Notes under the pieces: model-generated
Told to the model about the DNA's origin: nothing
The model's database searches: none
Seen by the model: only the letters and a program-made list of their open reading frames with translations
Made by a program: the position numbers and the translations under genes
Assembly (NCBI GenBank): GCA_022813865.1
Contig: JALDZX010000027.1
Coordinates: forward strand, 248,001-302,759
Source: Xylographa opegraphella
Lineage: Eukaryota
Reading direction: 5' to 3'
Length of the DNA: 54,759 nucleotides
In this document: positions 4,517 through 35,319 of the stretch, piece after piece
Numbering within the stretch: the first letter of the stretch is position 1
How the letters are laid out: each line of letters starts with the position of its first letter

Positions 4517-5653
4517 TTATTCTGGCGGTACATATGGATGAATTAGCATATCGCTGAAACTGTGGTAATTATAGAATGTCAGCAGGCATCAACATTTGGA
4601 AAACTCTTCGTAATGCTGACCTTTCGAGTTTTGCCTTTCCTCTTACTTCCTCGACCAGCAAAGGCATTTTCACCACATTGAACTCGTCGTAAAGCTCATC
4701 GATCTGATCCAGATACTTCTTCTGCATCTTCCGCCGCGCATTACATTGCTCGCAATGGTTGCTGGTTCTCGGAAAGAGCAGCTGATTCACAACGATACTG
4801 TGCGTGTCAATCTCGTATTTATTTAATTCCTGAATTAAGCGCTCCGTCTCATACAATGATAAGAACTCTGGGATGCAAACACAGACAAAGGTTGTCATGT
4901 CGGGGTTTTTGAACTGTACGTTCACCTCACCAATGGTTTCGCGGAGTGATTCCATTTTCTGCAACAGGTCATCAAGATTCTGACCTCCAGGAAGGCCTCC
5001 GCGAGCACCAATCACCGAATTCAGCATAGGTCCGAACTGGGTTGATAGCTGTGACAGCTTCGCAAGCGCCTTTTCCAACACTGTCGGAAATTGCAGGAAT
5101 CGTAGTGTATGGCCTGTAGGTGCGGTGTCGAAGATGATAGTCTCATACGACAGAGACTTTACCTGCTTCAAGACTTCCGCGAATGACATGGCTTCATCCA
5201 CACCAGGTATCTATAACCCATCGTTAGCATATGAAATTCACTCGGTTCCTGCATTTATCCCCTTACACTAAATGCAAGGTCCTGCATCATCCCGCCCATA
5301 CCACCCATCCCTGCCATTGCCTCCTCAGCGCCTTCTCCGCCTTCTTTTAGTAAATCCTGGATGCTACCATTCGGATCAATCTCCATGGCGCTTAGATTTG
5401 TGAAACCGTCTATTAACCGCGCCTCCTTCCCAAACTTCTGACTGAAGGCATCGCTGAGATTATGCGCCGGGTCCGTCGATATGAGAAGCACGGATTTGCG
5501 AACCTTGGCGAGTTGAATGGCCAAAGAGCACGAGGTTGTTGTTTTGCCGACTCCACCTTTTCCACCGACAAAGATCCAGCGTAGTGTCTTTTGATCGAGT
5601 ATGGATTGGAGGGTGGGTTCGAGAGTGTCTGCGTCGACGACAGCGGTAGACAT
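4517..5653 (-). CDS. GET3: ArsA/GET3 ATPase (tail-anchored protein targeting); exons 5653-5267, 5210-4621, 4559-4517
   Basis: Deviant P-loop [38 protein letters not shown] zinc motif; both introns have canonical splice signals. Confidence 0.97.
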
Positions 5654-6168
5654 CGTCCGGTGAAAGGAATATTCGATACTGTAATTGAGCTGCTCAGTTT
5701 GTGGTGCTATCCAACTAGCAGACAATGTAACCTAATGATCAATGCTCCAAGATCCGCTTAGGGCCTTCCTCGTTATGCCTCCAAAGCTTACGATTTTACC
5801 GTAGAGCGATCCCTTGTGCAAGGTTGACTGGAGTCGGTTAGCCATATTCCGCAAAACAATATTGCAGGTAAGGTGCCTTACTTACAACAGGTAACGCTAG
5901 TTAATCAAATTCTTGGCATCTGGTTTGTCTTCTTAAAGAATCCTAATTACCTGTGGAGCTCCTACTATAGTAGTTGGGCGTAGATATTGTTTCACGAAGA
6001 TGACGTAGCGGCTGCCAGCGACCCCTGTCGGAATTCTGGACCCGATAAGGTAAGGTATCCTATCGATACACAAGCTTCTGGCGTATAGTTATTCCATTTC
6101 CGAGAACCTGAAAACTTCCAGATGGGCACACAACGAATAGACATCCTTGCCAATCACCACAGCACATC

Positions 6169-8152
6169 ATGGACAACGTTGACTTAAAATCTAAGAAGCG
6201 CAAGAGAAAGCATCACGGGTTGCTTGATGAGCAAACAGTGCTTCTTCCGGCTGCCGGCAATACAGTAGTCGCCGACATTTCACACAAAACTTCTCAGGAA
6301 AGTTCGTTTGTGCAGAACAAGCGAAAGAAGATACAAGATGAGAATGGAGTAGATGAGGGCGAGAGCTCCTCTTCTCCACAAGCGAAGCCTTCCTCTATCA
6401 ATGGTACCCCACTAATAGAAGATCGCGAAGTCTTGTCCGAAGTAGGGGAGGATGGACAAGCAATTGGTGACACGAATAAAGTTATGGACGAATTGGATGG
6501 AGTTGATTTGCCCTCAAAATCGACGTTGGCTCTACCATCTATTGGTCCGGCTCCTCAAAAATTCTCGGACCTTGATTTATCTAGCAAGACCATGCAAGCT
6601 ATTGAAGACATGAAGTTTGAGACCATGACAGAGATACAGCAAAGGGGCATACCACCACTAATGGCAGGAAGAGACGTGCTTGGAGCTGCAAAGACTGGAT
6701 CTGGCAAGACGCTGGCTTTCTTGATTCCAGCCGTAGAAATGTTGAGCGCGCTGCGCTTCAAACCTCGAAACGGCACGTTTCTCAGCACGTCTCTGGATCG
6801 CGATGCTAATTGAGATCCAGGCACTGGTGTTATCGTCGTCTCTCCAACTCGAGAGCTAGCACTGCAGATCTTCGGAGTCGCTCGCGAGCTCATGGCCCAC
6901 CACTCCCAGACCTACGGCATAGTGATTGGCGGTGCAAATAGACGAGCTGAAGCTGAGAAGCTCGCGAAGGGGGTGAATTTGCTAATAGCTACACCAGGAA
7001 GGCTTCTGGATCATTTGCAGAATACTCAAGGCTTCATCTACAAAAACATCAAGGCCCTGATCATTGATGAGGCAGACAGAATACTGGAAGTTGGATTTGA
7101 GGATGAGATGAAGCAGATCGTCAAAGTGCTTCCTAAAGATGAACGCCAGACAATGCTTTTTTCTGCAACTCAGACAACAAAGGTCGAAGACTTAGCACGT
7201 ATATCTTTGAGACCTGGACCATTATACATAAATGTGGATCATCATAAAGAACATAGTACTGTGGAAGGTTTGGAGCAGGGATATGTTGTCTGCGATTCGG
7301 ACAAGCGGTTTCTTCTTTTATTTTCGTTTTTGAAGCGAAACATGAAGAAAAAGATTATCGTGTTTTTCTCGAGCTGCAACTGCGTCAAATATCATTCGGA
7401 ACTGCTAAACTATATCGACCTTCCGGTTCTTGATCTGCACGGGAAACAAAAACAGCAGAAACGTACCAACACCTTTTTCGAGTTCTGCAATGCCAAACAA
7501 GGAACACTCATATGCACGGACGTGGCTGCACGGGGGCTTGATGTGAGTGACATTGAGGCTGCCAACACGTGAAATGTGCTAATTAGCCAGATTCCTGCCG
7601 TTGATTGGATTGTGCAATTTGACCCCCCAGATGATCCTCGTGACTACATACATCGTGTAGGACGTACAGCACGAGGCTCGGGCGGGAAGGGCAGGAGTTT
7701 AATGTTTCTTCAACCATCGGAGGTAGGCTTTCTTAAACATCTGAAGGAAGCTCGAGTTCCAGTAGTGGAGTTCGACTTTCCAGCAAAACGAATAGTGAAT
7801 GTCCAATCACAGCTCGAGAAGCTGATAGGGCAGAACTATTATCTCAACAAGGTAAACTTCTCTCTTTCCAATCTACGAGGACCTGTACTGATGAAATTTA
7901 CCAAAGTCTGCAAAGGATGGCTATCGCTCTTATCTTCAGGCTTATGCCTCACATAGTCTGCGTTCTATTTTTGATGTTAACAAGCTCGACCTCGTAAAAG
8001 TGGCCAAGAGCTTTGGTTTCCAGACACCGCCTCGGATCGATATCCAATTGGGAGCAAGTATGAGCCGTGACAAGAAGAAAGATGGAAGACGAGCATACGG
8101 AAGCCAGCCGAAGCAAGGTCAGAGCTTCCACAAGAGGCAGCGAGGCTCATGA
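6169..8152 (+). CDS. HAS1: ATP-dependent DEAD-box RNA helicase Has1; exons 6169-6772, 6821-7542, 7591-7851, 7907-8152
   Basis: [49 protein letters not shown] and the Has1 C-terminal [11 protein letters not shown]; intron 1 is GC-AG. Confidence 0.96.
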
Positions 8153-11044
8153 GATCACTATCTTGTGCAACAAAGAATTGCCGCCGTTGTGCACTGTTGG
8201 GTATGTCATTGAAGTGCTACGAAATGGCCGAGGCTCATTACATTGGACGTAAGCTTTCCCGCTTTATACCTCTCTTGGAGATCGAGTTTGCTGATCAATC
8301 TCGACTACATAGGATTCTTGTTTGTCGGTTAACACGAAGTACGTTGCGTTTGCCGGGTACCTCGTGGACTAAATGCTTGTTAAAATCACTTTCCGAGAAT
8401 CTTAAGGCTGGTACCAGGCAGCAACGGTCGAGCTTGGTTCTGCTCCTGGCCAGATGCAAAGTGTTTCTACAAATACTTGGGGCATTTATACCATAATCTG
8501 AGTTCTATTAAAAGGCGTGATGTCACCGCCGCGTAGGTATATTGTGGGGATGGGAAATCGGAGGCGATTTCGGGGCGAGGAGGTTGGGCACTGGTCAATA
8601 GAGGCCATTGGGGAGAATGTGCGCTATGCATGGACGAGCGTTTCGCTTGGCGTGGCCATTCCCAGCTCATGTTATGTGCATACCAAACCTCTCCCTGCCC
8701 TATCTTGAGTGATTGTATGTGATGACGACTCGAGCTCCCATACTTGTCGCTAGTAGTGATATGATCCTAAGTCGCCTTTTGAGGGAGTGTTCCAAAGGCG
8801 TTTCTCCAGATCGGGCCTCTTTGACCCTGTTCAGCCGACGGTTTTGGGAAGATTGTGAGACGAGTTTGATTCCCTTAGTCGTCTCGCATATGATTCAGAG
8901 GTTGATATGGAGGAAACCAAGAATATTTGGACTCATAGACTTTGTATTGATTCATTGATTCATTCGTACGTCGCTAGACCTAAGTAGGCTATGTGTGTTA
9001 TGTTCCGGATCTTTCGCCACTACGATGGCGACATAGTATATGGAATATCCATCTTCTCATTTTGACGCGGTCTTTACACCCCGTTTTTGGGCCCTTTGTC
9101 TCCACCGTCTTCTCGGAAACCGTTAGCAATCTAGTAGCCAGTTCAAGTAGCTTCTGTAGTTTCGTCCAAGTTTACTACCTTAACAAAGTCTCCGTGACTA
9201 TTATATTTCCCTTCCGACCATAACAGCTCACTGCGGTCGGTAACCAAAACGTGGCAGTTCAGTACAACACATTACAGTCTGCTCCGCCGTTCCGTATACG
9301 CACAAACGTAAGTTGGATCCTGGGACCTGTCCAATCCTGCCGGATTATTATCTTCATTAGTAAGGACCTATCGGCCTTCTTAGGAATTTTGTGAATCTTG
9401 AGATGTTGTCTTTTTTTGTTTCGGCGAGTGCCGGATACCCCAGCTCTCGCCTCTCCTCCCTATCACCCTCCCACATTGCCACCCATTTATCTTGAGTCCA
9501 CCCCTGGGTCCAGGCATATAGACCTCGTATTCAGCTTCAGTAACCAACGCTGTATGAGAGGTGCTATCGTATGTTCTAGCTGCTTCCTAACCAATTACGC
9601 GTGCACTGATGAGAAATTTGCATGAAATGCTATGCGTTCCCAGGACTTGTAAAATTCTATTTCTCTTGCTTCGCATTTTTATCCAAGGCCATTAGTGTCA
9701 TTGAAAGATTATGATGCGCTTCAACCGTTTGAGGGCATCATTCTAGTGCCCAACCAGGACACCTGTGATTCGAGGTACTATTCACGTTTGACTGACCGTG
9801 AGTACAAGATCTTCAGGGATATCAGATAGTATGCATCCACAGGCCTAGCCGGGCAGCCGTAACGATCGTCGTGACTGGCTCTGCGTAGCAAGAGCTTTTG
9901 GGCGTATCCAAGGTTGCCTAAACATTATTATATTTCAGATTTTCCGAAGGACAACGTTTTTGGTGCTTGTGAAGCTCCATGAAGAGCATTCCGACTGTTG
10001 TGTACTTAGGTATAAGGACTTCCCATGATGCCAGCCAAGTGTGCAGGGTGTGAGCAAAATATGCATACTTCCGCTGAGACGTAGGAAATTCTAGGATCTG
10101 CGAGAATGTCAGCAAGTAGAAGAGTAGGGCTGGACCTAATATAACGCTAAAACTGCTCGTTGAGTGCATTCACCCAAGATCATTAGTGGTCAGATTTCTG
10201 GATAGCAAGTCACATATCGTGATTTGGGTGGCTACCTCGTCCATCCCTTTATCTCCCACAGTTCACAAAGCATAGCCTTGTGCAGATCAAGAACAATGTG
10301 TGCGAGGAGAGCAGACGTTGTTGGAAAGAAGATATCAAGTAGTTGCTTCCGTACTTCTAAGGTGAATTCCAGTTTCAGTTTAGCGTCAGCCGTGGTAAAC
10401 AACATTTGCGCAACATTCAACCACAGGCAGAACTACGTTTTCATAGTTGGTGGCATATTGATCTCAAAGGATTTTATTCTTCAAACGAGTTTGAAGATTT
10501 TGCTGCAGCAGATTCAAATGTGGCTCTTGTTTTGCCGCTGTTTCATCTACTTTCACTTTTCATTCGTTCGAATACGGAGTACCACCACATCCGAAGACAA
10601 CGACAATACCCATTTTGATTCTAGGCATGAAGGGCGTCTCATGAAAGACCATGAGAAGCTTCTGCAGCGTCCCAAGCGTGTCACATTCTCCTTTTCAGCA
10701 CCTTGCGGCCGTGTGATAAGCCAATGCCCTTATCAGTATATGAGCGGCCAGCCGCTAAGATGTGTTTTCTTTGCATTGACTTGCACTTTCATGCGCTCAT
10801 GAATGTCGTAAACCACGCGAGACTCCTAGTTCCGGCTTTTGTTGGCGTTGCTGAGGCTCCATGGCACGGCCATGTTGATAGCCTTACAACATTCTGCAAC
10901 TCAAACTCAAAGCTAAGGATACAAAAACATGCTTCAGAAGCATGAGAGCTGTGACAGCCATGGGTCTGTGTAGCTCTTATCCTCGTATAATACTTGGCAT
11001 TGCCCTTGGCATTTTTACTTGGAAGCCGTTTATCCCCATTCAGC

Positions 11045-14000
11045 ATGATTGTTCCAATCAACCTAAAGGATACCTACATATTAATAAACGAGTCATCGTT
11101 AAACTCGGTTGAAAAAGCCGCATTTCTCTCATTTTGTCAGAATGTTATTGATCTACCCTCAAGTAATGCCGCTTCTCATATATTAGCTAATATACCTTTA
11201 TCTCGAGAAGCTTCGTATATACCTCTCGCATGTTTTAGTTTTGCTCTTTCCAGGTACCCGGGGCAATGGCCTGTGTTCGATATCATTTGCTGTCATGCGA
11301 GGCTATGGCATGCTCTACCAGAGGACGGCAAGTCTGGGCATGATTCAGAGAACGCCTATATTGCCGAAACCGCTTTGGAGCTGGTCAAAGCTTCATACCG
11401 TGGCCTAACAGATCTGTTGCCTTACGAGAACGAAAAACCTGCGATCAAGGAACCACAGAGCCAAGGCTGTATAACGCATCGGACGCTTGCCAATTTTGTA
11501 CACAACTTCAATCTTCCTATCCATACATACGGTAAGAGGAAGCCAATAATAGTCGTTGCTCTTCCAAACGGTTCTCTGCTAGGATTGGCATGTCTAGCCG
11601 TTGCGACGTACTATACTGCGGTACCCCTCAACCCTTCCAGTGGAGCAGATCAGTTCCGGAGTGATGTTCAGCAAAGCGAGGCAAAAACTGTACTTGTTTC
11701 CAGGATAGACATAAAAAGACTCGGGCTAGAAGAAAAGTGGGTGACCGAGTGTGGAATTCAGATTCTTGCTGTGGAAGCCAATTCAGATCTGACTTTCAGT
11801 GTCACGCCATTAGTGACACCGGCTGCTTCTTTCCAAAGCTCTAGAACAATTAATGGCCCAGACGATCTCTGTCTTATCCTATTCACCAGTGGGACGAGTG
11901 GGACTAAGAAGCTCGTCCCTCTCTCATTGCATAATATTGCTTCCGGAGTCGCTTTCGTGATCGAGTCGTGGGGACTAACTGATGCAGATGTTTGTCTGAA
12001 TATGATGCCCCTAAACCATGTGTAAGCTCGCTTTGTTCGTCACTCTTCTCTCCAACTGATTTTAAGACAGGGGAGGACTTATTCGAAACCTCTTTGCTCC
12101 TATACTGGCAGGAGGCTCTACAGTATGCTGTCCGGCCTTTGATCCTAATCTTTTTTGGGATGTAGTCGAAGAGCAAAATCCCACATGGTACTATGCTTCG
12201 CCTTCAATGCACTCAATGATCCTAGCGGAGGTGACAGATCGTGGCGAAGCTCTTTCTAGAAGTCAGATACGACTCGTGTGCAATGCAGCAGGTGGCCTCC
12301 TCCCCTCGTTGGCTTCGCAGCTTCGTACAACATTCGGGTGTGTTGTTCTCCCTAGCTACGGGATGACTGAATGTATGCCTATATCAACCCCTCCATTGAG
12401 CTATCAGCTAGATCGGCCAGGGACATCGGGCTTGAGCGTTGGGCCCGAGATTGTGATCCTTGATGTTGGCGGTCATCGTCTTCGAAACTCAGAAGTTGGC
12501 CGTATTGGGGTCCGTGGTCCAGCGGTCTTTCCTGGCTATCTCAAATCCGGCCACCTTGATACAAGCATATTTACAGAGGACTTTTGGTTTGACACAGGAG
12601 ATATGGGCTATCTCGACGCAGATGGTTACCTCTACCTGACTGGAAGAAATAAAGAGGTCGTGAATCGTGGAGGAGAGCTTATATCGCCATATGAGGTGGA
12701 AGAGGCGATCATGGTGGCATCTCAAACTCCAGACTCGCCAATCTACAATCGTGTCTCCGAAGTCTTGGTGTTCTCCGCTCCGCACAATATTTTACAGGAA
12801 GTTGTTGGCGTTGTTATCGTTACTCCGCCTAATACGCCTCGACCGGATTTGAGACAGCTCCACGAAGCGCTGAAATGCTCTCTACACCAACCTAAGTGGC
12901 CCTACATCATTGTCTATATGGACAATGTGCCTAAGAAAAACAATAAGCTGCTTCGGCTGGGGCTTGGTGAGCGTTTGGGCTTTCACCCTTTAACAGATGA
13001 CATGACTTTAACAGACCGTCATTTACAAGCCCTGTGCCCACCTCCAGACACTTCTCTGAGCGAGTCGATTGAGATGTCGGTGGTACCCTTAAACCTGGAT
13101 ATACTTGCTACTCTGATTATGCAGCGGTTGACATCAGCTTTTCGTGTTTATGTTTGCAGAAGTGAGCAACATGGGCTACCAGAGGTCACAATATCGACCC
13201 AGAAGCACAAGCCTGGTTTTGTCGCTGTTCACGGAGAGCTTTCTATGGTTTCGGAAGGACTGTATGACTCTTTGGATGGATATTTAATACCAAGCAGCAT
13301 CAATTATATCGACTGTCCGCTTCCACTGAACGAACAAGGCCTAGTCGACAAAAGTAAGCTGGATATCATTCTGAAGGATCAAAGTTCTTCAAACCTGAGC
13401 TCCGACATATCTTCAATCGAGAACAAGATCAGATGCATATACGGCACAATTCTATCCTGTTCGCCTAATGATCTTTCTGCACAGTCCGATTTCTTCGAAA
13501 TGGGAGGCGACAGTCTTAAGGCTGGTAGACTTTTATCCCAACTTCGTAAGGAATTTCAAATTCGAATTCCGATCGGGACCCTCTTTCAGAAAAGCCGTGT
13601 GGAAGAGCTTGCTCAGATCGTCAATAATAACCTGTCACAACAACCACAAGCACCCACATATTCTCCAAATTCGATTGCTCTGCCAGGATGTCAGGACACC
13701 TACAGCTCAACCAACACACTCCTACTTATAATTCAATTATTACCTCTGGTAATACTCTATCCTATGAAGCGTTCCTTGAAGTGGACATTTTTCCTGTACA
13801 TGTTAAGCTATACCACAACTGTTTGGCCATGGCAGACTACGATGCTTGAGCGATTCATCAATCTCTTGGTTACCATGATTGTTTCGAAAGTGGCAACCCA
13901 GATCTGTGCTCCAATACTAGCAATTGCCACAAAATGGCTTGTGATTGGTCGATACAAAGAAGGTATGTATCCGATGTGGGGTCCATATCACACTCGATGG

Positions 14001-16310
14001 TGGGTTGTGCAGAAAGTTCTTGCTGTGGGCGGCAAGGGCATCTTCGGCTATACAGATATGACAAGAATACTATACCTTCGACTTCTAGGTGCGCGGATTG
14101 GAAACGGGGTCAGTATTGCGAAAGGTGCAGTCTTGGGCGAGTACGACTTGCTAGACATCGGAGATAACGTCGAGTTAGACAGCTGTACCTGTCGCCCGTT
14201 TGCTGTGGAACGCAACACCTCGATGTGCCTTCGCCGCATTGTCCTGGGCGCGAATTCAACTGTTGGTCTGAAGTCGTTTGTGGCCCCTGGAACTATCTTA
14301 CCGGTAAATACATGCATTGGATCGAGCAGTTCGACATGGGAGACCAAAGATGCAACAGAGGCCAACAGGGATTTATCGACGAAACGGGTTCCCAAGCCCA
14401 ATGCGATACTTTCCATAGTACTAGGTCTGCCTATCCAGGCGTTGGTAGGTATTATCTCGTTGCTGCCATGGATGGGAGGTCTTATCGGCATCATTTTGGA
14501 AGAGCCCGGTAAGGGTTCTGACGTCGTTGAATCAGTTACAATTTGGTTCGCAGATGCCAAAAGAGTAGGTTTCCATTTCTTAGCCCGTACGCTTAGCGTC
14601 TCAGTCGGTCCTTTTGTCTGGTTTGCCATGATTGTACTTGTCAAGATCGTTCTCGATAGATTTGTTGGAAAGCTAAAGCCGGGACCGGTGGAGAACAGAA
14701 GTGAGCTGCAGAAATTCCGGATGTTTCTGATGGCCAGCTTGGTACCAAAAGGCGATCTCGGCAAACTTACCGAACTCTTTGGGACACATTACGAATTCAC
14801 ATCCATGGCTATACGAGCACTGGGCGGCAAGGTCGGCTCACGTGTGTATTGGCCGGGTAATGGTCCCACAATCCAAGACTTTGAGCTTCTCGATATAGGT
14901 GACAACGTTGTCTTCGGGTCTCGATCACATATCGTCACGTCTGATGGTATGGGAAGTCAAGAAGTTCGTATTGGCGACAACACGATGGTTGCTGACCGTG
15001 TAATTATTCGTCCCGGGACTACTCTAGAGAAGAATACCGTTCTTGGGAGTGGAGCCCTGACAAGACGAGACACTGTCTACCCTGCTGATACTGTGTGGAT
15101 TGGATCAAAAGAGGGTGGTGCCGTGTGTCTGTCGATAACTGGTCGTTCTAATAGCGATTTGAAACGCTCGAACGAATCAGGAAAATTGAAAATCTCTGCA
15201 GCATCCGGTAAGACACTCGTTTCTGATCACTCCATACGCTCTTCTCAGTCAACGATATACGAGCATTCACTCAGGACTACATCGTCTTCGCCATCGCTGT
15301 CGCTGCAAGATCTTGAGAAATCGATTCCTTCCACCACACCTTCGAAAGCCGACACATCGCCGCAATGGTCAGATACGAAAGCAGGGGTTTCCAATCACAA
15401 GGCCAAGAAACCGATCGACTCAAATGCGAGTCCCTTTGGCAAAGCATTTTATGAAGGTGAAGCAGATTATTACGTTATCGGTATGCCCGTTATCTTCCTG
15501 TATTCAATCTTTACCAACATTTTTGTGACCATCTACTGGAACATTGCGCCCCTCTCGGCCATTCAAGTCCTCACCATAGCTATGAAAGCTTATCCCGCGG
15601 TTCTCGGTCCGGTTGCCGTGCGACCACTGGCCATTTACGCCTTGGTTCTTTCTGTTATGATACTTGTCATGACCGCACAAGCTGCTATTGCACTTTCGAT
15701 CGTCATAGCAGCTAAATGGACGCTGATGGGTCGTCGGGCTCCCGGTAAATACGACTGGGACAAAAGCAGCTATTGTCAACGGTGGCAAATACTCCTTACG
15801 ATTGAGCGCATACGCCGGCATTGCTACGGCGGCAACGGCATCATAGGCCTGTTGACGGGAACGCACTTTGCCGTGCTCTACTGTCGTGCTCTCGGCGCGA
15901 ACATTGGCACCGATTGCGCATTGTGGGCTGGTGGCCATACAAGTTTGCTCTTCACGGAGCCAGACCTCTTGACCCTTGGAGAAAGGGTCGCGGTGGACGA
16001 TGCAAGTCTGGTGGCACACATCAACTCGCGAGGGAACTTCTCTTTGAATGCATTGAGTGCGGGAGATAGAAGTGTTCTACGGTCGGGTTCGAGACTGCTT
16101 TCTGGAGCTACGATGGGCGCCGATGCCTGCTTGCTGGAGCACACGCTCATTATGGCGGGAGACGTAGCGGAAGAGGGAACAACATACCAGGGATGGCCGG
16201 CCGACGAGTTCGTGGGAGATCGGGAACGACCTTGCTCTCCAACTGTCAAGCCAAGAGGAGAAACCGGAACGGAGAGTTTCGAGACGCTGATAGCGGCTTG
16301 TCCGCCTTGA
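11045..16310 (+). CDS. Membrane-bound NRPS-like synthetase: acyl-CoA-ligase (Pcs60-like) A domain, T domain, three C-like/left-handed beta-helix modules with TM helices (Pls / polymalate synthetase architecture), ~1738 aa; exons 11045-12021, 12071-16310
   Basis: FTSGTSGTKK, MPLNHVGG (across intron 12022-12070, GTAAGC...CAG), SYGMTE, WFDTGDMG, GRNKEVVNRGGE; phosphopantetheine site DFFEMGGDSL (Ser ~13512); repeats KWLVIGRYKEG...LRLLGARIG, IRALGGKVG, KWTLMGRRAPG...RALGANIG flanked by hydrophobic helices. Start codon is the first in-frame ATG and is uncertain. Confidence 0.9.
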
Positions 16311-19853: not shown

Positions 19854-22800
19854 ATGAAGCTATGGACCCAAGGTCATCTTACATTCCTTTATGTCTGTCT
19901 GTTCTTCTGTTTCCTCAGGAGTCACGCGTTAGTTCCTCCGCCAGCACATATCTCTGGTCACCCTGGATCCGAACAGCAGACTTTGAAGAACTCCGCTGTC
20001 ATTAGCAAACCCACATCGAGTGCGAATTCACATAATCTTTCCCCCAATACTCCTCGGCCGGTATGGGTAATCGCCGACAACATGCCTGCACCCTGGGCAT
20101 TCCTTGGTGGTCCGTATGGGAACAACCCTCAGATGAATAGTCACTACTCTGTCCACGTAGGGGGCAACGCAAAGAATGGACCTATGCGGATCACTTTGAA
20201 AAATAGCACTGGCAACATTGCCGTTGACGTTACTGACTGGGGTGTGAAGAATTCGATGCAGCCTATTGGACTTGCACCATCTGTCCACCGAATTCGTGAG
20301 ATTGCCCTGATCGGGTCATGGAGCGGGACTAACGCTGAATTGATGGACTCCCAGACCGGTTCCGGTTTAGTCGCAAGAGCCTGGGCCATGAATAGTGTTT
20401 ACGAAGCGGGCTTCAATGGCTGTGGCCATTTCGCCATGGCAGTCCTGGGACTGATGAAACTCAAGGCGAAGCCGTCGGTCGTCAAGCGCATTCAAGGTGG
20501 GAATCAGTTCCTGAAACAGGTCGGCGCCAAAACGACGCCCATAAGCCAAGTTCGTCTGCAATATAATACCATCATTACATGGGGCCAGGCGGCAGTGTCC
20601 AGGAAATCATGGGCTCTGACCCCTCAAAGTAGCAAAAGTGGTGCTACTGGCACAGCCAAGTTACAGCCTAGATATGTTGCAGCTGCGGCCCAATACGATC
20701 CGGGAAGCCAATATGATCAAGGCAACGAATACGGCCAGGGAAACTCTAGGGTGCCGTATGATCAAGGCAACGAATACGACCAGGGAAACTCTAGGGTGCC
20801 GTATGATCATACCGGAGATGTTATATCGAAACCAGGAGCACCAGCCAATCCAGAAGAAGTTGGAGATTTCACCCTCGCTAGTATACCGGACGGTATTGTG
20901 GCTATGCTGAATACAAGCAAGGAATTCGAAGACGAGGCTTGGATTATTCCCCTTATCAATCAAGACCCTCCACCAATCGCTCAACCTTTCGAAGAGAGTC
21001 CACCCAAGGATCCAAAGTTCACGCCAATCACCCTCAAAGATCTCGCTCTTGCGAGTAGCGGGGATAATGTTTTCATGCTTGCTAGAGCTAATAGTGTCAA
21101 AAATCTTATCTCAATGACAACCACCACAGTGGTTAAAGGGCTTGCGGTAACTGCTGCCATTGCAGAGCCGATTTTTGTAATACTTGATTTTATCCATGGA
21201 AATGTAAGTCCTATTCTTGAAATTATAGCCTCTCTGCTCGTGCGGTACAGGGACATTTGGTGAATGGCTTAATAATATCATCTGTTACGAATCCATCGCT
21301 GGTTTTCATCATCTTGTATTGCGAGGTTAAATGCGTTCAAATGAACGGTGCTAACTTCTGGCTCAATAGTGGGTAGGTGGCGCCCTGGCCGCCGTTGGCA
21401 CTGTCCTTGAGGCTGTGGAAATTGCGGCCGTGGAGATGAGTACAGCTGAACTTGGTCCGGTAGGGGTATGTCGGTTTTTCTTTGCCACATCCTTCCATCC
21501 AGTACATCGGAGTCTAGGCTGTGAGATCTCTTGCCCGACTCATGTACCACTTTCCATAAAATTCCATCGTAGGGTAAGAAGAGCAATACTAACTCGAATT
21601 CTTGCAGTGGCTGGTAGACATTGCCATCACTGCCCTCTTTCTCATTCTCCCAGGACTCTTCAAGAAACCACCGAATCATCCACCGAACAACAGCGCTCAA
21701 AAAATCATCCAGTTCGCCATGTTTGGCGACCCCAACCACACGGGAAACGAGAAATGTCAACAAGGCAACCCGCAGTGTCAAGTCGTCTATGGTCCGAGCG
21801 TGATCGCAAATACTTTTGGATGGGAGCTGTTCGACGCGATTGTGTTCATGATTCAGTTCAACCAAGGCCTCACCATGACGATCCCTGATATGGCCGCTGC
21901 CTTTACTGCAATCGTAGATAATTCTCAAGGATCTCACCCTACTGGTGCACCACAAATAGCCACCATCACTTGTGCCGACCCTTTGAAGCATTCGAATTAC
22001 GACCCTTACGAAGGGGAAGCTATCTGTGTCAAGGCCGGATTCCAATTGAATCGGTCGTTGATTACATTACCCAACATCCTCCAAACTGCGGATCAGGTGT
22101 ACCCTCGTATCATAGACAGTCAAGGCAATGGGGACTGCAAGATGGTCGCCGCATCCTTGAGCGGGATGAACTTTCCCGACTACAATTATACATTGCTCAA
22201 TACCCCAGTCTCAATTGCTTGCGGAATTGGCCAAGTCAACGTCGGTGCGAATGCTCTCCCATGGGGATCCTTTACTGGTGGCAATGTCAACTCCTTGTTC
22301 AATCCTCCGGGCCAGTCAACCGATGGCAACGGAGGAGAAGCTCAGACAACCTTCACCGGCACAGTAGCACCGTTCCAATCCCTGCTATCCAGCACCAACG
22401 GACTTTGCTTGAGCGGCACTAAAGGTAGCATCTGCCTTCCAAATGGGACTTATACCCCCCAGACAGGCTCACTGGGCTACAATTCCCAATATACGACTGC
22501 AATGACCCTTCCGTCGTCCGGCGGCCAGCTCATCGTTCACTCCATGGTCACCAACATGGAGCGCCGCGCCGCGACCCCCGACTCGGACAACGTCGGCATA
22601 TACGAGTTCTCGCCCAGCGACCCCTTCTCCTCGCTCCTCGAACGCTCCCCGGAGGCCGCCGTGGTCCCGAGCTTCACCTGGACGCCGACGGGGAAGAAGA
22701 GGTTCGAGTTCGACCAGAACCAAAGCTCGACCAACGTCTCCTTCATCCAAGCCTTCTCGCACCTCACCTCGCAGAAGGCGGGCGACATCAACGTCCTGAC

Positions 22801-23095
22801 GCCCAACCAGGTCGTCCCCCCCGGGGCGTGCCTCTTCACGCAGACCAACTTCCAGGGCGACGTGCAGTGCCTCGGCGTCGGCGCCGGGCCGCTGCCGCAG
22901 GACCTGGTCAAGACGAGCAAGAGCATCTCCGTCGTCGGCAACGCCACCGTCTGGGTCTACTCCGGCCAGTTCAACGACAAGACGCAGCAGAACCTACAGG
23001 GCAGCGTGGCGGACCTGAATAATATCCCCGACGGGCCGAATTCCGGCTATCAGGAGAGGGTGGTGGCCATGTGGATTGCGCCGCCGGTGACGTAG
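19854..23095 (+). CDS. Secreted multidomain protein (~977 aa): signal peptide, permuted papain-like His/Cys domain, repeat linker, hydrophobic helical segment, Cys-containing domain, C-terminal beta/gamma-crystallin-like domain; exons 19854-21203, 21370-21465, 21608-23095
   Basis: Hydrophobic N-terminus MKLWTQGHLTFLYVCLFFCFLRSHA; two phase-0 introns (GTAAGT...GCTAAC...TAG; GTATGT...ACTAAC...CAG) join two long ORFs through a 96-nt exon; domain calls are by motif resemblance only. Confidence 0.75.
20712..20809 (+). repeat. In-frame 45-bp tandem repeat (~2.2 copies) encoding YDQGNEY(G/D)QGNSRVP
   Basis: tatgatcaaggcaacgaatacg(g/a)ccagggaaactctagggtgccg twice with one mismatch, plus a partial third copy. 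Confidence 0.95.
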
Positions 23096-28221: not shown

Positions 28222-29419
28222 TCACGAGATCCCTTCCTCCAAGTATTCGAACCCCCGCGGCACGTCCGACTCCTCCGACCCCTCATCGACAACATCAGCT
28301 CCCCTTTCCGCCCAAATCCTTCCCACCTCCTGCACACCCCCCTTCCCCATCCCCAACACACCTCCCATCCAGCCTACCCACTCCCATGGCCTCTCCCCAC
28401 CCCCGGGTAGCCCATTGAAGTACTCCCACCCCATCACGCCTCCAAACCCTTTCAACCTGCTCCTCAGACTCCCCAGCACCTGTCCCAGCACCTCGGGCGG
28501 AACCCACCCGGCCCCGTTCCCTGGGTTCGTCACCACACCGACCACGATCTTCTCGACCGGGAAACCCCGCGCGATGATCATCTCGTAGTGTGCCGTGCTG
28601 CTCATGTCGCCCCACCCACAGTAGAACTGCGTGTTATACCACGCGATCTCGCGCCCGCGCATCACCTCCAATGCTTCTGTTGATAGATCCCACCATCAGC
28701 ACAATCCCCTGTGTATGAACGAAAGTCCAAGTAGCCAGTGTTTCAGCGCTCGCTCAACATTGATAACTCACGACAAGGATTGATCGCCCCGCAAAACAGT
28801 TCTCAACCTGAACCTATGTTCAAACAAGCCTGCTCAGACGTCCCACCCACTCACCATAGCTAAACTCCGCATAGTTCTCGATCCGCCGATCCACCACCAG
28901 CGCCATCGCCACCGGCGCCAGCGTGATCAAGAAGCCCGCCCCGAAATCCGCCCGCAAGCGATCGATCAGCCGTACCACAGACCCCAGGGAGACCGGCTCC
29001 TCGATATCGAGGTCGATGCCGTCCAGCCGATGCGTCCGCAGAAAGTCTCGTAACGGAAGATAGTGCGTCTCAAAAGCGGCGTCGGAGCCGTCAAGGAGGG
29101 AAAATGTCCCGCGTGCGGCGCCGCCTAGCATGCTGAGAACAAAGATACCGGCGGCGCGGAGGAGGGCGACTTCGGACCAGAGGGGGTTGAAGCGTGGGTG
29201 GGAAGGGGGGTGGTTGTTTAGGTGAAGGGGTGGGAGTGGCTCGAAAGCGGAGGAGAGAGTGGGGGAATTGAGGTGAATGGCGGCGAGGATGATGTGGGTG
29301 GGACGGGTTTGAGATTGGGTGAGGAGTGGGAGGAGGGAGATGGGTTTGTCGGTGGCAGTGTGGTGCGTTTGGTGGTAGATGATCAGCCGGGGCGTGGGCC
29401 GGATGGGGATTGGTGTCAT
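28222..29419 (-). CDS. GH18 endo-beta-N-acetylglucosaminidase-like (cytosolic Eng18B type); exons 29419-28855, 28676-28222
   Basis: RLIIYHQTHH, THIILAAIHLN, MLGGAARG, catalytic LDGIDLDIEE, ITLAPVA, WYNTQFYCGWG, FGGVMGWEYFN; no signal peptide. Confidence 0.85.
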
Positions 29420-29752
29420 CACGAATCGATAGATATTACAAAGGAAAGGAGAGCTTGGATGAGGTAGGTGTGATGAGGACGAATGGCCGGCTAGGTAGGT
29501 AGATATCAATACTCGCCTAGTAGTAGGACACTTAGGGTTTGATGACATAAGAAATCTATCCTTGCAACGGCGGCGGCTTGTTGTCCCGCCAATATATTTG
29601 CCATGGATACAGCGGATTCGAACGACTAATGACTATATTACGCTACAAGGAACTACAGCAACGTCAAACTCTATACCCCACATTTTTGAGCTTTCACTCG
29701 TCCGCTAACAAATCTCCTTGATATTCGCCTAGGAATCTAAGCGGAAGCAACG

Positions 29753-30670
29753 ATGTCTCGTCCCGTCCTTCCGGGTGGAGGAGACAACATACAAAATCAT
29801 GACCACGATGAAAGGAGTACCCCCAAGTAAGTCACGCTCTGTCCGCGCTCAGCCATTCAGATATACTGATACTCACACCTTCCACAGTTCGGTATCAAGC
29901 TCGGAGTATCGTCACCATCCCGAACCATGCGCTGTCGAAATATACTAACATAAGGTACTCAGCAACAAATCAAAGCGCAAGCCAAAGGGAGCAACCAATG
30001 TCGAAGCGTCCTCCCAGCCCACCCACGAGCTTACCACCCCAACGTGCAGCGCCTGCTCCAAACCGGAGGCATCTGCCGCCTCGCCGCTCCAGCGCTGCGG
30101 ACGATGCCACACAGCCAAGTACTGCTCGCGCGAGTGCCAGAAAGCCAACTGGCCTAGCCACAAGAGGCTCTGCAACCGCCCAGGCTCAACGCCCCAAGCC
30201 CAGCCAAAGCCAAAGCCAAACGCCGGACTGGAGTACATGATGCACATGCTCTCTCAGACGGGCGGGCCCGGTGCAAACGCCTTCACCCAGATCGACGACG
30301 GGACCTATTTCGAGCGCCTCCCGGAGAAGGACGCCTTCGTGCAGATCATCGACTCGTACCGCCTTCGCATTGAAGACGAGTACACTTTCCATGGCGATGC
30401 TGGCGGCTTCTATGCTGGAGAAGTCCCGCTGCCGGATTTCCGGCGCTACTTGAACCGGGCGGAGAAGAGGGGTGGGGTGTTGCCAAAGTGGTGGAGCCGT
30501 GAAAGAGGACAGTGTGTGATAAAATGGTCGTGGACCGGGCGCAGTGGAGCGACTGGTACTCGGCGGTGGAGAATGTCGATATCATGCAGCACTATGGGGA
30601 TAACATGATGCCGATGAAATTGAGGATGGTGGCGGAGAAGGTGGAAGGCTCGAATGTGATGGCCAGGTGA
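29753..30670 (+). CDS. MYND zinc-finger protein with an apparent 1-nt frameshift near 30502 (pseudogene or sequence error); 5' exon structure tentative
   Basis: CSAC...CGRCHTAKYCSRECQKANWPSHKRLC; IDSYRLRIEDEY and LPKWW family motifs; the conserved tail AVENVDIMQHYGDNMMPMKLRMVAE lies in a shifted frame. Confidence 0.8.
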
Positions 30671-31207
30671 CAGGGCTGCAGTGCTCGCGCCATGCTGCGG
30701 GTGAAGCACCGGGGATTGTAATTCGTTGAGCCCTTAAGTTTGATTGTGGCTATTTATTGAATGTACGAATGGCGCTGACGGACTCGCTTCGGGTTGCTTA
30801 GACGGTAAAATCACAAAACACGGGCCTCATACTGAGCTCTCAAACAGCTACACAAGGTTACCAAGTGGCGGGACTTGAAAGGTCAGGCAAGAGCTTCACA
30901 TTATGAGATAAAAGTGATAGATTGAAGGTGCTTGTGTCTGCGCTCTGAAATTCACGGACAACTTAAACGACTTAGACACTCACGTAGCTCTGATCTAGAA
31001 TGTCTTCCAAACAATACTATCTAAGGTAATAACCAGTAATCCAATTCCAAGCCCTCCTCGGAAGTCAACCGCCGAATTTCGACTAATTCTCCTTTCTATG
31101 ATCAAAAACGAACTGCGTGTCGCCGGTATAATCCTGTGATATGAAACTGGTGGCTGATGCTATTTCCTGCGGCAGCTTCCGGTAGTGTTGGCAACCAACA
31201 GCGGGGA

Positions 31208-32908
31208 TCAAAAACCGTCAACAAGAGATAGAAATCCAAGCGGTACCGCAGTGAGGGTGACCACGAACAGTAGAAACGAGAGGAGAGAATGGAAACCTTT
31301 GTTGATCGAAGCCGGCCAGTACACGAGAGGGGCACTGATCCACATGACGGCGACGTACCACTTGTACCACCAGTACCGGCGGTCAAGCTGAGTAATCCCG
31401 TTCTTGATTTCCTTCGGAATACTGTTGTTCCTGCTGAGCATTGCAGGGGACGGTGCCAGGTTTTCGGAATGGATATATCCAACAAAGGAGTATGCCGGGT
31501 TGTCCGGTAGGAAATCCCACAAAGGAAGGGGGACCGATACAAGCAGCAACATGGAATTACTCTCAAACGCACTTTCCGTTCGGACGAGCTCTTCTTCCAC
31601 ACGGCGAACACGTTCTGGGTCTGGAAGCGTTGGAATACTTCTTATATAAGTTGTAGTGTCTTCCTGTGATTTCGTGGGCAGTTGTAGGCTCCAATCCTTA
31701 TGGCCAGGGGAATAGCTGACACGTATGGAACTGATGTTCTCCGGCACTCGTTCGCTGAGGTATGTAAGCCACTGCTTTTTTGAAGGTGGCTGAGTGGGGT
31801 CTTTGAGGTTGATGGATATGACGATTCTATCCTCAAACAAGGAGTCGTCTTCATCTGTTACGGTGCTTGCGATTTCTGTGAGAGGAGGACTGTTCGGAAG
31901 GTTAGGGTGGCCGTGGGGTCTGACGTAGTGCATAGGAGGTGTCAGCGGTGGATTTTCATTCAATGGGCGTAGAGGAATGCAAGAAGCATCTCCGTCAGAT
32001 AATGGAAAGTGCCGAGGAGTATAGTATAAACGGTTAGCGTCTCTTCGTGCCATCAGTCGTTTGCTGACTTTCCAGGCCGTCAGTTTTTTCGTGTGGTCGT
32101 CTTTCAATATTTCGATCAAATTTGACGTGAATGAGTTGTCATGCACACCGGTTGTCTTATCCTCCATTGAGCACGCTGCTAGAACCTCTTTGGATCCACT
32201 AATGGCTCCTCTTGTACCAGCCGTGGACGCGTAGCAACAATCAAGGATGAAAAGCACATCAGAGACTGCATCTTCAACAAGCAACGGTTGGATTTTCGTC
32301 CAATTAACGGTCACCGAATCGCTTCGCCGAGTGCTGCATTTAGATCAGTATCGATAGATTAAGAATATATAGAGTTGGGCGAAATATGACAGTGGTATTT
32401 GACACAACAGATAAATAACGAATCAAGGTATTGGTCAGAAACTTGATGATTGAAATAATCATTCGCAAAACCTCGTATAACGTATGTGTACTTACGCTGC
32501 CCAAACACTCTGGTTTTTGGGTTTGATACCGCCGGGTTTGACGCCGTGCCCCCCATAGTATACGATCAGTAAATTATTCTCATCTTCTTTGTCATATTCC
32601 CTTCTGAAGTCCATGACCTTTTCCTGTAGGAACTTTTTCGGGTCCTTACTTGGGATGCACTCGCATTGAGTCTTGTAGTGGTAAAGCCGTTGGAATACTT
32701 CATCAAGTTTGGCAACCTCCGTATGGGTTTGCAGGTCATCATCTTCCCAGCGAAGCAGAAGAACGTAGACTCCGTCATAGTACTTGGATTGGGTCGGAAA
32801 TACACGTTTCAAGGAATGTGTGAGATCTTCAACGAAGTCGTCTAGCGATACATGAGGCTTTGAGAAATGTGCAACATGCGTATCCGTTCGAGGCTCAAGT
32901 ATATCCAT
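31208..32908 (-). CDS. Caspase-fold (C14-like) protein with C-terminal transmembrane helices; exons 32908-32496, 32333-31208
   Basis: VLLLRWEDDDL, LLIVYYGGHG (His), DVLFILDCCYA (Cys), EVLAAC, SFTSNLIE; intron GTAAGT...ACTGAT...CAG; two hydrophobic helices at the C-terminus. Confidence 0.8.
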
Positions 32909-33980
32909 TCCGGATTGGCCAAGGATCTTGCAACGTTAGCACCAGTGATCAAAAACTTCCTCTATGGGAACGGCATACCTCGAGCTGGTCATTATCAATG
33001 TTTTCCATAGTCGGCGGTTACTTTGCAATCTCCGGTTGATAGTACTTGGTCAAGGCAACCTTTACACCATCGTTTGCCAAAGCTTGAGGAAGGGCTCCCC
33101 ACTATATAGATAGTGTAGACAACAAGGCTCCATCGAGGCTCTGACAAGGGCAGCTGAACAAGTGGTTGTGTAGTGGCGCAAGGTTCTATTGGACAACTCG
33201 AAAAGTGAATATGGGTAGCAAAGCGAATCCATTGGGCAGAATTTGCCTTCTTTAGATCGCGACCACGGTTGAAGGATCGGGCATAATTGCCTGAAACACG
33301 AAACCTGCTGGTGCAAGTTCTTCAGCCTCGCCTCGTCGTACATCCGCTAAGCAAGCGGCTACCACCCAAGTCATTTGCAATTTGACCTGTAGCGATGATA
33401 CCTGCGAGACACGACACGATTAAATTCCATAGTGGCAACGCGGTTATGACTGCTCATACGCAAGAGCCTGCTGAGCTCGAAAGATCAAAACAACTCTCAA
33501 GGAAGGCGCTCATATAGAACAAGGCAAATTTTACGGAGTATTGCAAGCCTCAGTTGTGGGCGCGTGATACGTCGCCCCCAAGTTCTCACTTGTTAGTCTA
33601 AAAACTTCAGCAAATGACTCGACTGCATCTCAGCCACTTTGACACACTTCCATCAGCGTAGAGCCTGCGACATCAGTCATCAGCGGCGATCACCGCTCGG
33701 TAGAATAATTCAGTCATAAGAAGGAGCTGAACGGTGGATCAGAATCATATATTCGCTTGAGTCATGGTTGTGCGCATTGCTTGATGGAAGGTCACTCAAC
33801 GCGCCGTTACGAGATGTGAAGGATCAAAGGTCGCCGTCGGCGAAAAATCCTTTTACACCCGAGAAGCTAAGTTAGGGAGGGCAAGTGGGCCAGTAGATAG
33901 CTAGCTAGTGCCCCTAATCCCCCTAAACATTTCTACCCAGTTGGACCTTGGACGGGTCAAGAAGGGCGCCTCACCTCCCA

Positions 33981-35319
33981 TCACAAGTCCTCCTTCTGCC
34001 TCTCACCCCCTATGCTTCTTTTGCCTCTCCTCAGCCCCTCCACCCCTGCCGTCACAGCTTTCAAATGGGCAAACGTATCCGCATCCTCTCCCAACGCCCA
34101 TGCAAACACGCCTCCCAGGCCCTTGTCCTCCACAATAGCCGGGAACTTCCTCGCAATAGCCTTGGGCGTGTCCCAGCTCCACCAGAGATTTTCCGTCGAG
34201 TCCCAGTAGTAGTGACCTCCCGCCTTCTCATCATACCGTCCGTTCTTCATGGCTTTTCGATATGATAGCGAAAGCTCTTCCGGGACAGCGTCATGCCATG
34301 AAAAGGCTCCTGATTTGCCCAGATCAGCACCCGTCTCGGGGTCTTCCATCAAGCTGGTCTTGCAGCCTATAGGGTACCGACTGCACGAACTGTGAGGTGC
34401 TGTTCTAAACCATTTGATATAGAAAGCGAAGCCAAGATTGAGCTTCTGCGCCGGGACGCCGTTCTTCATAAACGCATTGATACCATCTAGCGAGAGTGAA
34501 ACACCGGTGTGGTGCTTCGTGACATTGTCACGTCTGGTCATCAGGTCGTAGGTCATGACGTTAAAGAAGTCCAGCGAGGCACTGATCCTAGGGACTGTGC
34601 GCTTGGTGAATGCCATCATATCCCGCGGAAGGCCCGGGACCGCTGCAGAAATAAGCTTGTCGGTCCCAAGGGCGGAGCGGATATCTGCAAGGAGCTTTGG
34701 GTAAGCGTCGATTTCCCAGATTCTCGCGGAATTGGGGATTGTCTTGTAGTCTTCGCCGTTACCACTGGCGTGCAGTCAGTCACTACGTACAATGACAACT
34801 CGTAGGTTGCTACGAGGTGATGGTACTAACCCCGGATATTCCCAATCGATATCAACGCCTGGGAGTCATCAGCAAGCATTGACAATGAACTTGCCGTCCC
34901 GTGGCCTACCATCTGCTCCAGTTGCGTCCACCATTGCTTTCACGTTCTGAGCAAACAATCTACGGCTACCGTCCGTCGCTGCGGCTTGGGAGAAACCAGT
35001 AGTGTCGCCCCATCCGCCAATGGCGACCATAACAGCGGTTCCAGGTAGAAATTGTGACCGAACATGTTCAACTGTTGTGAAAAGCGGCCAGGTCGGGGGC
35101 TGCGCCGCATTGAATGTGTCGGGGCGCATGAAGGCAAGAGCAACATGGGTAACCTCTGACAGAAGGGATTTATCAGGGACAACATTATGTTGCCTGGACA
35201 ATCATTACAAAATGGAGAAGAGAGAGACTTCCATGAACCAACCCTGTGAGGTACATGATACACCTGGCGCGAGAGGGACCAGCCATTACCATGAGTGACA
35301 GCAATATAGAGTAAAGCAT
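33981..35319 (-). CDS. GH18 chitinase with signal peptide; exons 35319-35243, 35193-34910, 34858-34831, 34764-33981
   Basis: MYLTGQH, THVALAF, VAIGGW, DGVDIDWEYPG (DxxDxDxE, split over a 28-nt exon), NVMTYD, LGGVFAWALGED; ends in KEDL. Confidence 0.93.

Follow-up and report, generated by a model that had tools for sequence, protein, structure and literature searches.

A stretch of 54,759 nucleotides from the genome of the fungus Xylographa opegraphella (assembly GCA_022813865.1, contig JALDZX010000027.1, positions 248,001 to 302,759 of the forward strand; hereafter the window, to which all coordinates refer) contains a gene for a large membrane protein resembling nonribosomal peptide synthetases (NRPS), which raises the question of what this enzyme activates and what it makes of it. 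An initial annotation had proposed a stand-alone enzyme with an adenylation (A) domain of the CoA-ligase kind, a carrier (T) domain and a C-terminal part as in the poly-amino-acid synthetase Pls. To judge from its sequence, the gene is an intact member of an already known family, that of the polymalate synthetase (PMAs) of Aureobasidium, and its product is probably a membrane-bound single-module polyester synthetase making poly(beta-L-malate); the notion of a stand-alone oddity had to be given up, since the family is very widespread.

The PMAs of Aureobasidium melanogenum/pullulans (QHD40385.1, MN551082) was reportedly described by Wang et al. 2020. In the accessible parts of five papers, QHD40385.1 is presented as an A-T-C-like (C, condensation) NRPS with six transmembrane (TM) regions and without a thioesterase (TE), required for polymalate (PMC11286673, PMC11905612, PMC10751350, PMC9647333, PMC9210645), and deletion of MN551082 is stated in the available text of PMC9909216 to remove free polymalate in Aureobasidium. 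The four primers of that knock-out are printed in the supplement of PMC9909216. On the Aureobasidium-type metagenome locus L015, which is 99.8% identical to P0029 of A. pullulans, they fall within the coding region, in the right sequence and orientation, with 2, 0, 0 and 1 mismatches (3 in total), and all four translate to peptides present in the Aureobasidium clusters of our homologue search. With cluster members to which these primers map standing in for the record QHD40385.1 itself, the window protein is 50.7% (P0123, 1711 columns) and 50.2% (P0029) identical over around 1710 columns, and 62-63% in the A core. The A-like, T and C-like domains, the six predicted TM helices and the lack of a thioesterase, all traits of PMAs, are found in the window protein as well, and the likeness extends to the full-length architecture, the predicted pocket, the carrier serine, the conserved C-terminal residues and a score below the cut-off of the Pls profile TIGR02353. 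By these alignments the window protein is a full-length homologue of Aureobasidium PMAs and its gene is probably orthologous, in line with the candidate polymalate-type synthetase originally proposed. Despite this similarity there are differences: the window gene comes from a lichen-forming lineage, contains one intron and has other neighbours in the loci compared, and its six TM helices follow the T domain, whereas a review, in the part available, places those of PMAs at the N-terminus (PMC11286673).

Two long open reading frames on the plus strand (11045-12025 and 12066-16310) cover the gene. The join at 12022-12070 is the sole option with a GT donor, among the candidates tested, that restores the frame, and the resulting two exons (11045-12021 and 12071-16310) encode an intact protein of 1738 amino acids (aa) with zero internal stops. 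The gene models of X. vitiligo and X. bjoerkii likewise encode 1738 aa and read PLNHVGG through the same junction; splice signals and homologues thus both indicate that the intron should be real. A pseudogene or two separate genes were ruled out, the frame break being a canonical intron. The nearest named proteins come from Xylographa (80-87% identity over the part searched), and in its own genome the C-terminal part of the protein matches a single locus. The gene and its product are composed as follows:

11045..12021 (+), exon 1: residues 1-325 plus two bases of codon 326; start and length as in the Xylographa models P0152 and P0004
12022..12070 (+), intron of 49 nt, GT-AG, inside the PLNHVGG motif (after PLNHV)
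12071..16310 (+), exon 2, running to the stop codon
11045..11404 (+), N-terminal extension, around 120 aa, sharing around 30% identity with its counterpart in Aureobasidium
11405..12668 (+), A-domain core of oxalate-CoA-ligase (Pcs60/AAE3) type: P-loop SGTSGTKK at 11888-11911, Arg331 at 12084-12086; Ala399, Pro429
12669..12998 (+), Asub1, catalytic A-subdomain: A10 lysine Lys618 at 12945-12947; Foldseek match to Pcs60 (8aff) over 107 columns, root-mean-square deviation (rmsd) 1.9
13071..13388 (+), Asub2, second, degenerate NRPS-type A-subdomain: A10 lysine position taken by Leu750 (13341-13343), variable in the family
13425..13619 (+), carrier (T) domain with GGDSL: Ser807 at 13512-13514; PF00550 with 52.5 bits (cut-off 20.8)
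13701..14378 (+), Pls-type repeat 1, helix pair plus left-handed beta-helix, from TIGR02353 match, alignment and AlphaFold model
14391..15128 (+), Pls-type repeat 2, helix pair plus left-handed beta-helix, from Pfam (Hexapep) and AlphaFold model; best VIA-align match maltose O-acetyltransferase
15144..15398 (+), Ser-rich insert between repeats 2 and 3, predicted disordered: pLDDT <50 at model residues 492-576 (protein 1351-1435)
15426..16229 (+), Pls-type repeat 3, with His1642 at 16017-16019

Most of what the initial annotation had read from the letters was found again. Pfam detects AMP-binding, PP-binding and Hexapep and nothing else, which together with TIGR02353 matches in three stretches and three modelled repeats agrees with the supposed order of an A domain, a T domain and three TM/beta-helix units. 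The motifs named are present (PLNHVGG at residue 322 across the intron, WYYASPS at 365, NRGGE within 517-528, GGDSL at 804), and the carrier serine Ser807 is intact. The claimed lack of TE, reductase (R) and canonical C domains agrees with the Pfam set and with motif searches, in which neither HHxxxDG in the whole protein nor GxSxG after residue 845 was encountered; a canonical NRPS, with condensation domain and TE or R release domain, was rejected on these grounds. The FDxS aspartate is missing from residues 1-640, again as claimed. Two parts had not been recognised before, namely the N-terminal extension, for which neither a Pfam match nor a usable Atlas match was obtained, and the degenerate second A-subdomain.

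Concerning the substrate, the assignment of the A domain to the Pcs60/oxalate-CoA-ligase type stands, but the oxalate determinants are missing from its predicted pocket. The best PDB matches (obtained with P0152 of X. vitiligo as query) are the oxalate-CoA ligases 5ie0, 6qjz and 8aff (209, 203 and 158 bits), and among solved structures Pcs60, AtAAE3 and LsOCS are nearest to the A core and Asub1; in contrast to them, the window protein lacks these determinants, possesses Arg331 and continues into T and membrane domains. The oxalate pocket of AtAAE3 comprises Val215-His216, Cys288-Ser289, Ala313-Met314, His319 and Lys500 in the portions available of PMC8905533 and bioRxiv 2022.08.30.505785, the former of which also calls Ser289 and His319 conserved in oxalyl-CoA synthetases only. 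In a pairwise alignment to AtAAE3, which, instead of a liganded model, underlies the pocket assignment, His216 corresponds to Gly327, Ser289 to Ala399, His319 to Pro429 and Ala220 to Arg331. In a family alignment of 125 sequences (the window protein, 119 matches of the homologue search and five cluster members, excluding the database entry of the window itself), these residues are fixed: Gly327 in 116/116 and Arg331 in 117/117 ungapped rows (8 gaps in the latter case), Ala398/Ala399 and Pro429 in 125/125, Lys618 in 124/124 ungapped rows, and Ser807 in 125/125. The window protein equals all 4/4 Aureobasidium rows at 325-328, 331, 332, 365-371, 396-401, 421-431, 618 and 807; Gly327, Arg331, Asn332, YYAS, CNAAGG, GMTECMP, Lys618 and Ser807 are shared with these four rows and near-invariant among the 125, and the differences at scored pocket positions are confined to conservative exchanges (I/L and V/I) at 329-330. 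A fixed arginine in a widened pocket would suit a C4 dicarboxylate. A separate Pcs60-like oxalate-CoA ligase gene of the same genome (G000:C57:243800-247200, locus L004) has all oxalate determinants (PLFHVHG, RSCSS, AYAMTEAAHQ). The identity of the window protein as an oxalate-CoA ligase was rejected, the Ser289/His319 determinants being gone and His216 being Gly327, as was that of a stand-alone ligase of around 510-540 aa, which a multidomain protein of 1738 aa does not match.

The C-terminal half explains how an activated acid might become a polymer. Residues 860-1715 were modelled with AlphaFold from an alignment of 98 sequences (pLDDT 87.9, pTM 0.86); the model consists of three repeats of a long helix pair and a beta-helix, and the hydropathy peaks of the protein coincide with the modelled repeat helices. 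Fold searches with this model lead to hexapeptide acyltransferases, the best VIA-align match being maltose O-acetyltransferase (Z 12.1, rmsd 3.5, 147 aligned residues, mostly in repeat 2); Foldseek returned nothing at E<=0.001, and no solved Pls-type C-terminal domain was among the matches listed. Each repeat resembles maltose O-acetyltransferase, serine acetyltransferase and LpxD in fold; unlike these enzymes, the window protein has three non-identical repeats in one chain, is anchored in the membrane and is supplied by a tethered carrier domain. In repeat 3, His1642 is conserved in 24/24 fungal, 108/120 diatom-search (9 gaps), 4/4 bacterial and 3/3 other rows and, on visual inspection, lines up with Q-T-H and Q-S-H in two bacterial Pls proteins; by analogy to hexapeptide acyltransferases, it is a candidate catalytic base.

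A T domain followed by three TM-pair/beta-helix repeats is the common trait of Pls, PosA and Epls, and the same layout was modelled for PosA, with three beta-helices packed as in a sugar acyltransferase trimer (PMC10522769, as far as available). The Pls-type C-terminal layout of the initial annotation therefore holds for the T domain and the repeats, although the protein is not a member of Pls proper. TIGR02353, suggested as a check, matches in three stretches (E 3.6e-49) with 167.7 bits, below the curated cut-off of 423.1, and the same is true of the Aureobasidium homologue (198 bits), whereas a true bacterial Pls reaches 772.6. C-terminal identity to bacterial Pls/PosA is around 22-27% over the longer matches. 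The window A domain is of CoA-ligase type without FDxS, whereas both bacterial Pls fetched possess that motif (2/2); with an extra subdomain and an N-terminal extension the protein has around 1740 aa, compared to 1335 and 1407 aa in Pls; and an ester, not an amide, would be expected as its product.

Between the catalytic lysine and the carrier serine, the family contains a segment that sets it further apart from Pls. The spacer from Lys618 to Ser807 comprises 185-191 residues in 24 fungal proteins, compared to around 60 residues in the one Pls in which both motifs were located (532, 594). A model of residues 520-850 (pLDDT 92.5) exhibits two units of A-subdomain topology before the T domain, and in Foldseek this region matches Pcs60 over around 107 columns (rmsd 1.9) and structures of NRPS A domains with their peptidyl carrier protein (PCP) over around 180-200 columns. 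The second unit, Asub2, lies at residues ~660-765; phmmer pairs its GYLIPS...LPLNEQGLVD with the A10 region of PvdL, Leu750 replacing the lysine, and this position is variable across the 125 sequences (Ser 34, Asn 14, Leu 12, Ala 12). By sequence, Asub2 is of NRPS type and catalytically dead. Pfam leaves it undetected and finds Asub1 weakly (E 0.055). Two CoA ligases and two Pls proteins served as controls for family profiles: that of Asub1 gives the ligases 23.8 and 11.8 bits and the Pls proteins -1.2 and -3.9, while that of Asub2 gives the Pls proteins 15.7 and 9.1 bits and the ligases 0.3 and -2.2, these scores being modest and the controls few; the Asub2-T region matches the Pls Asub-T region with 48 and 24 bits. 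Since the two profiles dissociate between CoA ligases and Pls, the simplest reading would be that a CoA-ligase gene was fused to that part of a Pls-type gene which encodes the A-subdomain, the T domain and the membrane region. A recent internal duplication as the origin of Asub2 is not favoured, because hhalign gives the pair a probability of 16%. The spacer is also present in members from the diatom search (174-233 aa, n=120) and in 3/4 bacterial members (median 170, minimum 93), so that the fusion would be older than the split of the fungal, diatom and bacterial members. No description of the dead subdomain or the fusion was found in the literature, although no search was aimed at that point.

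The following mechanism may be envisaged. An Sfp-type phosphopantetheinyl transferase (PPTase) would prime Ser807; a candidate gene with an ACPS domain (PF01648) in a 315-aa open frame is located elsewhere in the same genome. The CoA-ligase-type A domain would then adenylate one carboxyl group of L-malate with the aid of Lys618, which is placed by alignment, while the second carboxylate might be held by Arg331, the replacements His to Gly327, Ser to Ala399 and His to Pro429 presumably making the pocket wider. The malyl group would move to the pantetheine arm, the dead Asub2 perhaps maintaining an NRPS-like A-T geometry. The three beta-helices of the single chain are predicted to pack as a pseudo-trimer resembling hexapeptide O-acyltransferases, in which the hydroxyl of a malyl unit could be esterified with the acyl group held as a thioester, His1642 being the likely base. 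Six helices would anchor the enzyme, and, by analogy to Pls, the chain may be released at or through the membrane without a thioesterase.

Products other than free polymalate were considered as well. If malate or a similar dicarboxylate is activated, malyl or short oligomalyl groups might be put on a cell-surface glycan or lipid, the free polymer of high mass being a peculiarity of Aureobasidium. In fold, the beta-helix repeats indeed come nearest to sugar and amino-acid O/N-acyltransferases, the available text of PMC9210645 places fungal polymalate within cell membranes and mentions a possible covalent link to polysaccharides, and hundreds of fungi, as well as diatoms, retain the gene although free polymer was not found reported for them in the literature. 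We nevertheless consider such an acceptor rather unlikely: Pls and PosA with the same C-terminal layout yield free homopolymers (PMC10522769, in the part available), the Aureobasidium deletion abolishes free polymalate according to the accessible part of PMC9909216, and no glycan-related neighbour is conserved among 84 loci. A polyester of another small hydroxy acid (e.g., tartrate, glycerate, 2-hydroxyglutarate, or glycolate) appears improbable in view of the match to Aureobasidium at the scored positions (325-332, 365-371, 396-401 and 421-431, save the exchanges at 329-330), even though the overall divergence from PMAs is around 50%, first-shell residues do not fully predict specificity in CoA-ligase-type enzymes, and the pocket was read from the pairwise AtAAE3 alignment.

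Readings with oxalate or amino acids as substrate are, even taken together, very improbable. Activation of oxalate, as an oxalyl-CoA ligase or for oxalyl transfer, would be attractive in a lichen fungus, and besides the solved relatives of the A domain some database homologues bear the oxalate-CoA ligase label; it has nonetheless very little probability, as the three oxalate residues are replaced, the separate gene on G000:C57 keeps every one of them, and oxalate offers no hydroxyl for chain growth. Least credible of all is a poly-amino-acid synthetase of Pls/Epls type, to which the TIGR02353 match over three stretches and tblastn matches to bacterial Pls/PosA genes (22-31%) might point. Apart from the low profile score, the protein is 24-25% identical to two Pls homologues and lacks the FDxS aspartate that PosA requires according to the part of PMC10522769 available, whereas Epls is described, in the accessible text of PMC7179176, as 51% identical to Streptomyces Pls and equipped with a lysine pocket.

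Several observations weigh against polymalate as the product and against a direct correspondence to PMAs. The window protein is hardly nearer to Aureobasidium (50-51%) than to homologues of Trichoderma, Fusarium and chytrids (48-49%) and falls outside a subclade with a support of 97 that holds Aureobasidium (quick tree, SH-aLRT only); moreover, several species have two family copies, so that the two genes may not be one-to-one orthologues. Residue 324, variable in the family, is Asn versus Phe in the comparison of the window protein with Aureobasidium. For the PMAs promoter, a Crz1 site GNGGCKCA and a second motif CAGCCAC are reported, which are regulatory and not enzyme-defining; GNGGCKCA is absent from 8238-11045, i.e., 2.8 kb upstream of the window gene (nearest match at 8230), and occurs 22 times in the whole window compared to 15.6 expected. 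Genomic neighbours that recur beside homologues come from few lineages, five of the six loci with a flanking Get3 gene looking like near-copies, and neither this gene nor the adjacent helicase is found at the Aureobasidium-type loci L015 and L019. On the side of PMAs, the evidence is genetic, the enzyme being yet to be isolated according to the available part of one review (PMC9210645), and the producers named in the accessible parts of reviews (Aureobasidium, Penicillium cyclopium, and Physarum; PMC11905612, PMC9210645) are far fewer than the carriers of the gene.

The homologue search recovered 1166 homologues among 7999 scored candidates, with representatives of Sordariomycetes, Dothideomycetes, Leotiomycetes, Eurotiomycetes, Lecanoromycetes and two chytrid genera. 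A scan of metagenomes confirmed 223 of 440 stretches, of which 80 were kept, and a divergent group among these led to 671 proteins among 6191 candidates; in the best 120 of the 671, the named organisms are all diatoms (Seminavis, Nitzschia, Cylindrotheca, Mayamaea, Epithemia, and Stephanodiscus). This large diatom clade is contained in L045-L084 and P0209-P0328, along with divergent eukaryote-looking loci (L075-L082, L083 with a GC content of 0.34, and L079). Concerning bacteria, a GTDB scan with the C-terminal alignment confirmed 0/232 stretches, whereas a rescan with the A-T alignment confirmed 6/230, four of them full family members and two (L089, L090) with the A domain only. At least four full-length, single-frame bacterial members thus exist, two labelled Myxococcota/Myxococcales and two Planctomycetota, and this number is a lower bound, since the scan needs exact short patterns. 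These four, in metagenome-assembled genomes (L085:6675-11030, L086:6672-11156, L087:5258-9901, and L088:6486-11249), possess the same pocket and lie among bacterial genes (ECF sigma factors, ArsC, LysR, sulfatase); no PPTase gene was recognised adjoining them. Across all groups, Arg331, Tyr366-367, Asn397, GMTECMP, Lys618, Arg621 and Ser807 are kept (bar gaps and one change at Met424), whereas Asn332 is Gln in diatoms, Val326 is Ala or Ser in bacteria, and Cys396 is Ala in both.

The main tree is a quick maximum-likelihood tree of 44 C-terminal domains with SH-aLRT support only; a FastTree of 125 sequences was also available. In the quick tree, bacteria, diatoms and the 24 fungal proteins (including those of the window and Aureobasidium) each form a group with a support of 100, and the window protein stands with Xylographa and Trapelia at the poorly supported base of the fungal clade. 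Four chytrid homologues (P0048, P0057, P0058, and P0059 from Geranomyces and Thoreauomyces) nest among ascomycete proteins in both trees, their best non-chytrid matches being Bathelium/Bogoriella/Trypethelium (53-54%), so that a transfer of the synthetase gene from ascomycetes to chytrids is possible. P0179, P0064 and P0116 (Dactylellina and two Xylariales-type sequences) sit among Capnodiales-type sequences, against taxonomy, which might reflect further transfers or hidden paralogy. As far as homology can tell, the family is very widespread, with many fungi, diatoms and a few bacteria, and the polymer is known far more narrowly. Among the records listed in a literature search, none dealt with polymalate in lichens or diatoms in its title or in the opening of its abstract, a weak result with most subscription papers beyond reach.

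In its own genome, the gene is preceded by divergently arranged genes for a Get3/ArsA ATPase and a DEAD-box helicase (4569-8496), the latter presumably Has1-like, and followed by a DUF7053 gene (Pfam), and the observation that no tailoring genes adjoin it proved right. Get3 flanks the homologue in 6/84 other loci and the helicase in 1/84 (91% in the best segment); no conserved pathway neighbour (tailoring, transport, or hydrolase) emerged across the 84 loci, 51 of the 85 spans having a flank of at least 3 kb. Farther downstream, long frames at 19854-23095 (+) with a signal-peptide-like start, a short tandem repeat (YDQGNE..) and no Pfam match probably constitute one intron-bearing gene for a secreted protein. 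Two separate frames at 28820-34619 (-) have Glyco_hydro_18 matches (24 and 122 bits), and a frame at ~29949-30608 (+), ending in ...PWSYTTYKGS, resembles a transthyretin-like 5-hydroxyisourate hydrolase. The genes for an FAD-dependent monooxygenase (41639-42883, -), TAF8 (45488-46210, -), an eIF5/eIF2B-domain protein (47198-47935, +) and an RTA1-like protein (53665-54591, +), all assigned by Pfam, are too distant and unrelated to suggest a cluster.

The window gene itself is ordinary within its large family, and what the comparison adds is testability: polymalate polymerisation is known from genetics in one genus only, and residues to mutate can now be named (Arg331, Gly327, Pro429, Lys618, Ser807, and His1642, plus the dead subdomain). 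The family constitutes a natural case in which a loading-domain swap on a Pls-type polymerase would have changed the chemistry of the polymer. Tentatively, and with more doubt than for the enzyme itself, one may suppose that polymalate or a malylated surface polymer is widespread and has been overlooked in filamentous ascomycetes (lichen fungi among them), in diatoms and in some Myxococcota and Planctomycetota. A single ancient enzyme family would make it, having originated by fusion of an oxalate-CoA-ligase-like gene in front of the remains of a Pls-type A-T-membrane gene, by which a poly-amino-acid synthetase became a polyester synthetase. If so, a first in vitro reconstitution could start from the four bacterial genes, which have no introns and would provide tractable enzymes, and diatom polymalate would be an unrecognised product of carbon export. 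If a conserved pocket means a conserved product, an industrially interesting biodegradable polyester would be made unnoticed by lichens, many fungi and diatoms, and in lichens polymalate would be a candidate for an extracellular polyanion that binds Ca2+ and other metals and holds water.

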